Positions 27,001 through 30,000 of a DNA stretch of 64,000 bases are shown piece after piece. The position numbers are program-made. The stretch comes from an uncultured Phycisphaerales bacterium (GTDB lineage: Bacteria; Planctomycetota; Phycisphaerae; Tepidisphaerales; Tepidisphaeraceae). Numbering within the stretch: the first letter of the stretch is position 1; the number at the start of each line of letters is the position of its first letter. The DNA lies in assembly GCA_963844715.1 (NCBI GenBank), contig CAWJPJ010000004.1, forward strand, positions 160,001 through 224,000, in the 5' to 3' direction.

Positions 27001-30000
27001 GAGGGGCAGGATTTTTACGATAGCAACGGGCAAAAAATGCACGTCGTCATGCCGGAGGTGCAGATTTTCGATCCGGGTCTTAAAGCGGCGATTTCAAAAT
27101 ACCCTTACACCGAAGTCAACGGCGAAATCCGCGGGCGGAGCAGCGCGCGCCATCCGGAAGTGATTCCGTATCCGTCCTATCTGATCCGGGTTCCGCACGA
27201 CGACGCGACGGATTCGCCGGACAAGGACCAAATTCCCGGCGCGACGCCCGATCAGGATCAGCCGGGCGACGGTATGCACTAGAGGGCGCTTCTAAAACAC
27301 CGTGCGACTTCTTATCGCCACGACCAATCCCGGGAAGATTCGCGAATTCCGCCAGATGTTGGGGGGCGGGGATATCGAATTTAGCGATCTCACTCAGTTC
27401 CCCGGTCTTGCGGAAGTGCGGGAAACTGGGCTGTCATTTCGCGATAACGCGTGCCTGAAGGCGTCGGCGTATGCGAAGGCGACCAAACTTTGGGCGCTGG
27501 CGGACGATAGCGGGTTGTCTGTGGATGCGTTGGATGGGAAACCTGGCATTCATAGCGCGCGATGGGCGCAATTGAACGATGCGGGCAAAGGGGACGCCGC
27601 CAATAATGAACTGTTGGTGAGACAAATGGCGGGGGTTGCTGAATCAGAGCGAACGGGCCGATTCGTTTGTGCTCTGGCGCTGGCTGATCCCGACGGGAAA
27701 ATAATTCTGACCGCGTTGGATTTGGTCGAAGGCAGAATCCTGCGCTCTCCCCGCGGTCAGAATGGTTTTGGTTACGACCCGCTGTTCTTTGTTGAATCGC
27801 TTGGCAAGACGACGGCCGAACTGCCTTCGGATGAAAAACATCGCATTAGCCATCGGGGTAAGGCTCTCGCGCGAATGCGCGAACTTATCGTGCGGGCGCG
27901 GGTTGAATGAACCGCCAAGACGCGGAGGACGCCAAGATAAAACACGCCAAGGGATTGTTGGGGGTGGGGGGATTATTTGGATGGCTGGTTTAAAGGGGTT
28001 AGAAATAAGAATATTATGGAGGATACGACCACGTTTGAGCCTGATGCGGAGTTGGATCGGTTGGCGTCGGCTGTGATTGGGGCGGCTATTGAAGTTCATC
28101 GCATTCTTGGGCCGGGATTTCTGGAGGGGACTTACGAAGAAGCGATGGTGATTGAATTGGGGCTTCGCGGGCTGTCGGCTCAAAGGCAAGTGCCGATTTG
28201 TATTCGCTACAAGGGGGTTGAGATCGGGCAGAACCGACTCGACTTGCTTGCCGAGGGGCGACTTATTATCGAAATCAAGGCGGTCGATTCCCTGGGGCCG
28301 ATCCAACAGGCGCAAGTCATCTCCTACTTAAAGGCCACTGGCCATACCCTGGCGTTTCTGAACAATTTCAATGTCCGAATCCTCAAAGACGGGGTCAAAC
28401 GAGTCATACTTTCCCCATCTTGGCGATCTTAACTTGGCGTCCTCGGCGGCTTGGCGGTTCCATCCGGTTTTCCCTTTCCCCCAAAACCCTTCTCCAATAC
28501 ACTCTACCCCCCATGAGCCGGATTCTTGTCGCCGTCAGTAGTCCTTGGGCAGCCGAGAAAGTCGTTGCGACCGTCGCCGATTTGGCCAAGCGTCTTTCGG
28601 CCGAAGTGCTGGTGGTTCACGTTTCCCGCCCCAGCGGGGGGCAGATGCGCGAGCAGGAGCAGGCGGATGGCGAGGGGGCGGTCAGTCTTCTTCGCGGAAA
28701 GCTCGAGGAACGCAATGTTCCTGTGCAAACTTTGCTTATGTTCAGCGAAGATATCGCCCGGGCGGTGCTGAACACCGCCGCCGAGCGGCAGGTGACCCTG
28801 ATTGTGCTCGGGCTGACCGGGAAAAATGTTTTCGCGCGACTTTTGGCCGGAAATGTGCCGGTCGAACTCATCAAGAACACCAAGATTCCCGTCCTGCTTC
28901 TCCCGCCGGACTGGAGCGCGGCGATATAGGACTTGTCCCGAGGTGGAATTTTTTAAAACATTTCTTTTCGTGCGCCGCGCGGACGATATAATCCTAACCT
29001 CGCAGGGCGCGAATGGTCGTGCCGCGGAGATTTAACGGAGCGTTAATACATGGTCAACGGCGATGAACTCATGCCCAAGGAATGTTTTTTCACCAAGGGC
29101 GTCGGCCGGCACGCGCAAAAACTCATGAGTTTCGAACTGGCGTTGCGGGATGCGGGGATCGAACAGCAAAATCTCGTGCGCGTTTCTTCCATCTATCCGA
29201 CGAGTTGCAAAATCGTTCCGGTAAAGGAAGGCACCCCGAAACTCAAGCCGGGGCAGATCACCTTCGTCGTGCTCGCCGAGGGGGCGACCGACGAACCGAA
29301 TCGGCTCATTTGCGCCGGCATCGGATTGGCCATTCCGCGCAATCACGCGCATGGGTACATCGCCGAGCATCACGGCTATGGGATGAGCGAAAAGAAGACG
29401 GAAGACCTTTGCGAAGATCTCGCGGCGACGATGCTCGCGACGACGCTGGGCATTCCTTTCGACGCCGACAAGAGCTGGGACGAACGCGAGCAGCAGTACA
29501 AGATGAGCGGCGACATCGTGAAAACCCGCTCGGTTGTGCAGACGGCTGAGGGGGACAAGAGCGGCCTGTGGACGAGCGTGATCTCCGCCGTCGTTTTCAT
29601 TCTCGATCCGACGCCGGTGCATTCGGAGAAAACCAACGGCGAGAAAGCAGCCGCGGATAAAGCCGCCGCGGATAAAGCCGCGGCTGAAAAAGCTGCCGCG
29701 GAAAAACCCGCCGAAGCGCCCAAAGTGGCGGCCGTACCTGCTTAGACTTTTGGCTGCTGCTGGCTCAAGCAGTGAATCGCGCCAAGCCCCCAGATCAGTT
29801 CGACGCAGTCGATCCCGATTACTTTGCGCCCGGGCAAGTGGGATTGCAGAATCTCGATTGCCCGCCGATCGTTTTTTCGATTCCGATACGTCGGCACGAG
29901 TAGCGCGCCGTTGACGAAATAAAAGTTCACGTAGGTCGCGGGCAATCGCTGCTTGTCGTACTCGACGAAGCCGGGCATGGGAATTTCGACGATTTCCAGG

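Follow-up and report, generated by a model that had tools for sequence, protein, structure and literature searches.

Known repeat-flanked genes and the GxxExxY family

Small genes lying between their own repeats have been described in several systems. In the Ssn/SRM system (NTS-ssnA-NTS), a small single-domain nuclease gene is flanked by repeats of 20-50 nt that are also dispersed, many enzyme-repeat pairs occur across phyla, and the GIY-YIG nuclease SsnA makes a site-specific cut in ssDNA beside its own repeat, mobility being only proposed in the passages of the report that we draw on (PMC11893778). RAYT/REPIN/BIME elements and TIRtrons likewise combine a gene between inverted repeats with gene-less inward or head-to-head doublets and mosaics, and the sections of these studies cited here describe slow turnover, persistence after gene loss and scarcity on plasmids for RAYT/REPIN (10.1101/2021.07.10.451892; PMC3733652). 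Certain 23S rRNA intervening sequences (IVS) form a long stem whose loop contains a four-helix-bundle ORF, according to the excerpt used here (PMC4990558). The GxxExxY cassette analysed here, a small PF13366 gene between inverted arms, is like each of these systems in the features named; it resembles Ssn/SRM and RAYT/REPIN but is a member of neither. Unlike the Ssn proteins (GIY-YIG, cd10448), its product matches only PF13366 in Pfam; the SRM is itself a short palindrome, whereas the GxxExxY arm is built from a run of 7-nt units in direct orientation and has its sole pairing partner in the opposite arm; and Ssn activity has been measured, whereas GxxExxY is known here from sequence and model (for Ssn, the same passages of PMC11893778). 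Unlike RAYT genes and TIRtrons, the cassette has neither an HUH (Y1) tyrosine transposase nor a GTAG/CGTC tag, and whereas the cited sections describe RAYTs as vertically inherited, 'multiple transfers' are noted for PDDEXK_3 in the part of PMC3424549 used here and the cassettes occupy many unrelated junctions. Unlike the IVS, the cassette lies between protein genes, shows no sense-strand pairing bias and encodes another protein. Unlike insertion sequences and MITEs, it encodes no DDE enzyme and lacks a sharp terminal repeat other than the arm head, and no duplication was detected.

The first-pass annotation of the locus had proposed an 'undescribed class' of element, which is too strong because Ssn and RAYT/TIRYT genes with their own dispersed repeats are already published (passages of PMC11893778 and PMC3733652). 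PF13366 occurs across many bacterial phyla and also in archaea, and its function is given as 'Unknown' in the cited part of PMC3424549. In the main texts of the open literature searched, we found no link of the GxxExxY family to repeats, the name itself receiving a mention in passing; PMC11893778 makes no mention of GxxExxY, PDDEXK, DUF559 or four-helix proteins, and the supplements of this paper and of preprint 10.64898/2026.09.22.753630 could list such loci. As far as the open literature searched shows, the pairing of GxxExxY genes with repeats is real, widespread and apparently unpublished.

The cassette in the window and its counterparts

The cassette lies at the rdgB-usp junction of a 64,000-nt stretch of DNA (the window) from an uncultured Phycisphaerales bacterium (Table 1). 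Its two arm cores, 32 nt each, are inverted and 91% complementary, the folded strand pairs the two arms (z = -5.35 against 100 shuffles), and the single ORF that they enclose is the GxxExxY gene. Homologues of rdgB in relatives extend 3-15 codons beyond the stop in the window. An ATG at 27907 overlaps this stop and is out of frame with the GxxExxY gene, and there is one weak sigma-70-like match (27989-28017; 9/12 positions, 0.3 expected by chance). An Rfam search gave no match of note, and none of the families of the PADLOC 2.0 anti-phage defence profiles matched. In public sequencing runs, parts of the locus appear as contigs in four DNA runs of one study, with no RNA run among those listed. 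One contig joint skipping 27936-28420 was not counted: its short side is 27 letters, undetermined bases lie between, and a paralogous ORF-less hairpin is the simplest explanation.

Table 1. Features of the rdgB-usp junction (window coordinates)
Feature	Position	Strand	Remarks
rdgB (Ham1 family)	27302-27910	+	stop TGA (27908-27910) serves as left-arm head
Left arm	27909-27951	+	core 27909-27940; head and four 7-nt units
Left-arm units	27913-27919, 27921-27927, 27930-27936, 27945-27951 (fourth)	+	
Spacer	27952-28015	+	G-rich, then AT-rich; between left arm and GxxExxY gene
GxxExxY gene	28016-28432	+	138 aa from ATG; 151 aa if started at TTG 27977
Right arm	28419-28460	-	core 28429-28460; inner fourth unit 28419-28425 within last codons of GxxExxY gene
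usp leader	28461-28513	+	53 nt between right arm and usp
usp (universal stress protein)	28514-28929	+	conserved downstream neighbour

The encoded protein matches PF13366 with 124.7 bits (cut-off 22; E 3e-36), its sole Pfam match, and TIGR04256 with 125.1 bits (cut-off 35); the PDB holds no sequence relative of it, and a protein atlas search returned PF13366 clusters only. The predicted structure (pLDDT 97) has a PD-(D/E)XK fold with the E...D...ExK and QxxxY motifs intact. Fold-search matches are weak (none at E <= 0.001 with Foldseek; best fold match Z 7.8, rmsd 2.4, 85 aligned) and mostly to PD-(D/E)XK nucleases: lambda exonuclease, Cas4, RecE and Hjc. The D/E/K residues are kept in 136 of 138 GxxExxY proteins and QxxxY, a mark of Cas4 and RecB-like nucleases according to the section of PMC4625639 cited here, in about 97%. 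Judging from the model and the motifs, GxxExxY is predicted to be a minimal RecB/Cas4-type PD-(D/E)XK nuclease. A strand-transfer domain is absent from the protein, and homodimer prediction, scoring 0.00 twice, yielded no verdict.

All four PF13366 genes of the genome have matching inverted arms on both sides (scores 23-39), as the first-pass annotation had claimed. The layout is arm-gene-arm on contigs C4 (the window) and C8 and hairpin-gene-hairpin on C5, and on C6 a complete hairpin precedes the gene and one arm follows it; of the cassette coordinates originally given, those for C5, C6 and C8 are the positions of the genes. Each cassette had been credited with its own arm motif. The four are variants of one grammar, in which a TT-x-[AG]C head leads into 3-4 units C[AG]C[ACG][AG]A[GT] with an 8-10 nt period. 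The purine-rich strand comes first at 90 of 100 loci.

The earlier observation that the arms also occur as ORF-less hairpins was reproduced for all four; the arms themselves have 31, 39, 41 and 18 dispersed matches at >=75% identity (the count for the C5 arm includes overlapping registers) and 0 in the shuffled genome. The original hairpin counts (15, 21, 16 and 8) were reproduced in magnitude though not in the exact figures: inward same-type hairpins with a loop <130 nt, another definition, number 10, 12, 18 and 9, two of them being parts of cassettes. Type-specific patterns were used here because a broad regular expression of the grammar was too noisy (134 real vs 17-26 shuffled matches). 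The ORF-less arms resemble those of the genome's own cassettes (11-30 arms at >=24 of 28), compared with only 0-2 at the same threshold for the arms of 134 cassettes elsewhere. Nested mosaics also occur, with one arm type around another or around a 7-8-mer hairpin of the four-helix-bundle kind. Ten head-to-head arm pairs have spacers of 13-16 nt; this fixed length was dropped as an independent sign of a cut site, the spacers being one sequence family. An integron reading of the arms was likewise dropped: the attC consensus is RYYYAAC, which some arm heads fit, others reading GCC, CAC or GAC. Beside two cassettes, ahcY and an oxidoreductase gene are frameshifted (C5 near 125790-126000, C8 near 284550-285310), possibly through assembly errors.

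The armed layout extends well beyond this genome, and the high scores previously reported for relatives and other phyla were recovered in independent samples. This genome and 40 relatives contributed 71 PF13366 loci. With 11 loci left out (partial genes, short flanks), inverted arms score >=14 at 50 of the 60 remaining, against 0 of 400 size-matched ORFs and 2.5% of mismatched pairs. In a cross-phylum sample, the best 80 of at least 600 loci from species genomes and biased to one clade, this score is reached at 45 of 73 loci (7 left out), at 0 of 73 shuffled loci and in 12% of mismatched pairs. Armed loci are found in Acidobacteriota, Pseudomonadota, Chloroflexota, Bacteroidota, Verrucomicrobiota, Chlamydiota and a methanogen, among others, with Ignavibacteriota (0/2) and Bacteroidota (2/7) lower; all five scorable loci on viral contigs are armed. 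Of 138 loci, 96 have a unit doublet on both sides, 26 on a single side and 16 on neither, compared with 1 of 2,273 random windows. Two identical cassettes in one genome (G046) were discounted, for they lie within an identical stretch of 3,440 nt that is probably an assembly duplicate.

Gain, loss and decay at conserved junctions

The first-pass annotation regarded the cassettes as insertions into conserved junctions, and this stands for the three of the four that were tested. At the rdgB-usp junction, the cassette is absent in all 14 relatives with both genes at the locus (18 loci compared, four without rdgB; one of the 14 is the unpublished genome G004), the gap being -4 to 219 nt compared with 602 nt here, in line with the earlier claim; in one of the 14 (G011) the junction holds a decayed hairpin built from units of another type. 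Downstream of the right arm, the 53-nt usp leader can be aligned with the end of rdgB and the usp leader in the congener G001, at low identity but with 0 of 200 shuffles as good. The insert has thus probably truncated rdgB and provided its stop, and the usp leader is probably a piece of the former junction that the insertion pushed aside. The gene is also absent in 12 of 12 informative relatives at the arsR-methyltransferase/ahcY junction (of 18) and in 3 of 3 at the valS junction (of 21), G004 being one of the relatives in each case. At the valS junction two congeners have an 8-mer hairpin, and hairpins of the GxxExxY arm grammar directly follow the valS stop in three other relatives.

Decay is visible at the ispH-shc junctions of the genus of G042 (Candidatus Sulfotelmatobacter), where a cassette or its remnant occurs at 8 of 41 junctions, in a sample of 42 of 81 genomes chosen by match rank, which favours filled alleles. 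One of the eight alleles is intact, two are frameshifted, four are internally deleted and reduced to the arms and a few codons, and one has a 7-mer hairpin replacing the gene; 75 metagenome junctions yielded two full, two deleted and two identical nested alleles. The internally deleted alleles show directly that a cassette can give rise to an ORF-less hairpin. Carriers are scattered over the host tree (8 changes; 6 in a larger set), so that repeated loss and lateral allele exchange are both possible. A homing endonuclease element cuts the empty allele at a single conserved site and is copied together with its flanks by co-conversion. The ispH-shc junction shows life-cycle states, and a common short ispH tail occurs in 8/10 cassette alleles vs 4/78 others, but the independent pairs are too few for a conclusion, and many unrelated sites are used. 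None of the ispH-shc junctions compared provided a filled/empty pair of more than about 91% flank identity with a GxxExxY allele; for none of the cassettes did we find a target duplication or an exact filled/empty pair, no compared pair being close enough, and a search of the genus Stieleria gave no orthologous junction.

The ispH-shc site is a hot spot whose contents differ between species: GxxExxY cassettes, palindromic repeats of other kinds, or a recurrent small ORF that resembles a coiled coil and starts MTIDERL (L242-L286, L374-L453). By eye, solo nested left arms precede a ribH-like gene in four species (L289:1560-1720, L313, L315), one of them apparently within the 5' end of that gene, a possible domestication.

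The three full ispH-shc alleles are about 75% identical, compared with 79-82% for the host genes, with a protein identity of 83%; cassettes less alike than host genes point to old residence under selection, not a recent sweep. Such long residence is expected if the nuclease serves the host, as proposed for Neisseria SsnA, by cutting arm-bearing incoming ssDNA and tuning gene exchange while the hairpins are kept at gene ends as terminators or mRNA protectors. Also favourable to a host role are the rarity of GxxExxY on mobile DNA, with 7 hits among 72,556 plasmid records and none among 50,697 phage records, the recurrence of hairpins after valS stops and the enrichment of paired arms between convergent genes (21/62 vs 19%, p 0.006, with crude gene calls). 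Frequent frameshift, deletion and loss, with one intact gene among the eight filled junction alleles, and a patchy copy number of 0-7 per genome speak against it, and we regard a host role as improbable, although it is compatible with the arm-cutting cassette discussed below.

Probable arm recognition and the spread of the repeats

The unit ending (GAT, GAG or AAG) follows protein phylogeny: it requires 5 changes on a tree of 50 proteins, compared with 23.2 for shuffled labels. The genome's four genes occupy four separate places on this tree, with no recent self-copy of a cassette seen among them, and arms persist across 35-50% protein identity although neighbouring genes change. Because kin share labels, co-variation alone is no proof of recognition and could reflect linkage alone. 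Left-right mismatches between arms are concentrated in the linkers (13-29%) and at unit position 4 (18%), compared with 0-2% at positions 1, 3, 5, 6 and 7, and G-U-compatible mismatches are not in excess on the sense strand (74 vs 74, 100 loci), a pattern more in keeping with sites read by a protein than with a simple RNA stem. None of the 15 four-helix-bundle, Y1-transposase and DUF559 genes of the genome has the GxxExxY arm grammar. Taken from these patterns, recognition of its own arm by the GxxExxY protein is likely.

The same data bear on the possibility that the arms form an RNA stem excised by RNase III, rendering the insert harmless as in the 23S rRNA intervening sequences. The long stem around an ORF, a layout common to four-helix-bundle (23S_rRNA_IVP) genes, and the RNase III excision of IVS described in the cited excerpt (PMC4990558) agree with such a role. 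However, there is no sense-strand G-U excess, the mismatches are position-specific rather than even along the stem, and the observed sites are mRNA junctions, not rRNA, which makes this explanation very unlikely.

We propose instead that the GxxExxY protein would recognise the 7-nt unit array of its own arm, probably as single-stranded or extruded DNA, and would cut at the arm or just outside it, binding, cutting and strand preference all being inferred. Gene and arms would form a slow, long-lived selfish or half-domesticated cassette. Because the protein has no strand-transfer domain, host recombination would complete each step, be it a new insertion, an exchange of cargo between arms or the homogenisation of arms, and no target duplication would result. 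Internal deletion would leave ORF-less hairpins behind, with their arms retained, which become nested in other hairpins and persist once the gene is lost. We give this model as a whole an even chance. By analogy, the cassette most likely works like Ssn/SRM and RAYT/REPIN with a PD-(D/E)XK enzyme.

The cassette behaviour of the genes and their deletion derivatives are observed; whether the nuclease mobilises cassette and hairpins is about evenly balanced. Of the earlier view that mobile cassettes seed the hairpins, gain and loss as a unit can be upheld, but not the nuclease as mover, with no duplication, excision or exact filled/empty pair found. Across 41 relatives, arm count correlates with gene count (rho 0.55; 0.40 minus own flanks), these genomes being incomplete and the rows related. 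Across 81 genomes of one genus, arm count minus own flanks does not follow gene presence (rho 0.06; medians 12 and 10), and 12 of the 24 gene-less ones have at least 10 arms. Two incomplete assemblies are extreme, one (G019) with 41 arms and no gene, the other (G018) with about 60 arms of a type foreign to its one gene. Given incomplete genomes and slow repeat decay, the arm-count test is weak both ways. Also against the nuclease as mover are the armed four-helix-bundle genes with their dispersed copies, whose product is not a nuclease, and the lack of any recent self-copy of a cassette.

The lack of a relation to gene presence in that genus would be expected if the protein reads the arms, for instance for self-regulation, and is only carried along, the spread being due to DDE-type MITEs, RAYT-like enzymes or interspecies allele exchange anchored on flanking housekeeping genes. 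In the youngest burst seen (G032), the hairpin, of CACAGAG type, rides inside a 164-165-nt MITE that has terminal repeats of its own and duplicates TA; about 30 copies are present (17 of 20 parsed in L091-L110). Like TA-duplicating MITEs, which we take to be of the IS630/Tc1 type, the cassettes have gene-less derivatives formed by internal deletion. Further points for such passive spread are hosts that are 96% alike in ispH and yet can differ in the entire ispH-shc junction content, junctions that hold different hairpin systems in different species, and unrelated cargo genes enclosed or flanked by arms. On the other side, the hairpins of the present genome show, by inspection, no common outer terminal repeat and no TA ends, its five Y1 transposases have different arms, and the active site is strongly constrained; passive spread appears rather unlikely, if less so than a host role. 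As separate observations, the G032 MITE is often inserted at either TA of a REP-like palindrome, and at three loci (L312, L307, L350) the cargo of nested arms consists of small membrane-type ORFs or a HAD-like gene, as labelled by eye.

For each protein the arms indicate a predicted substrate, so that its activity is open to tests on short oligonucleotides of the cognate and non-cognate kinds, the step that in 2025 revealed the parallel GIY-YIG family as site-specific ssDNA nucleases (passages cited from PMC11893778). If the proposed arm-cutting cassette is correct, a second, unrelated fold would indicate that repeat-plus-nuclease systems arose convergently, a class of intergenic palindromes that abounds in little-studied phyla would be accounted for, and the family would be a source of very small nucleases with varied specificities. 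More speculatively, and possible rather than probable in our estimate, GxxExxY might be a large family of ~130-aa sequence-specific nucleases with a readable arm code (GAT, GAG, AAG), whose genes and arms would mobilise themselves without transposase or recombinase. GxxExxY would then belong, with DUF559, Ssn and the four-helix bundle, to a set of convergently evolved armed small gene systems that have gene-end insertion hot spots, mutual nesting, cargo genes and one host-completed route in common.

Other armed genes were noticed during this analysis. A DUF559 gene of the window (31737-32162, minus strand) has its own inverted arms of the CCCTCTCCC...GGGAGAGGG type; all three DUF559 genes of the genome are armed, their arms having tens to more than 100 dispersed copies, and form a parallel armed-nuclease system. 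Four of the seven four-helix-bundle (PF05635) genes, whose product is not a nuclease, lie between inverted arms of 7-8-nt units (C8:462889, C6:590026, C7:480336, C4:133092), two of them with 68-84 dispersed copies. Four of the five Y1 transposase genes are armed, and two (C6:612548, C8:63110), which agree in profile score and in their arms, may stem from a recent copying event. At L001:3210-1906 (minus strand), valS has an apparent in-frame insertion that, by eye, resembles a DUF559-type repeat.
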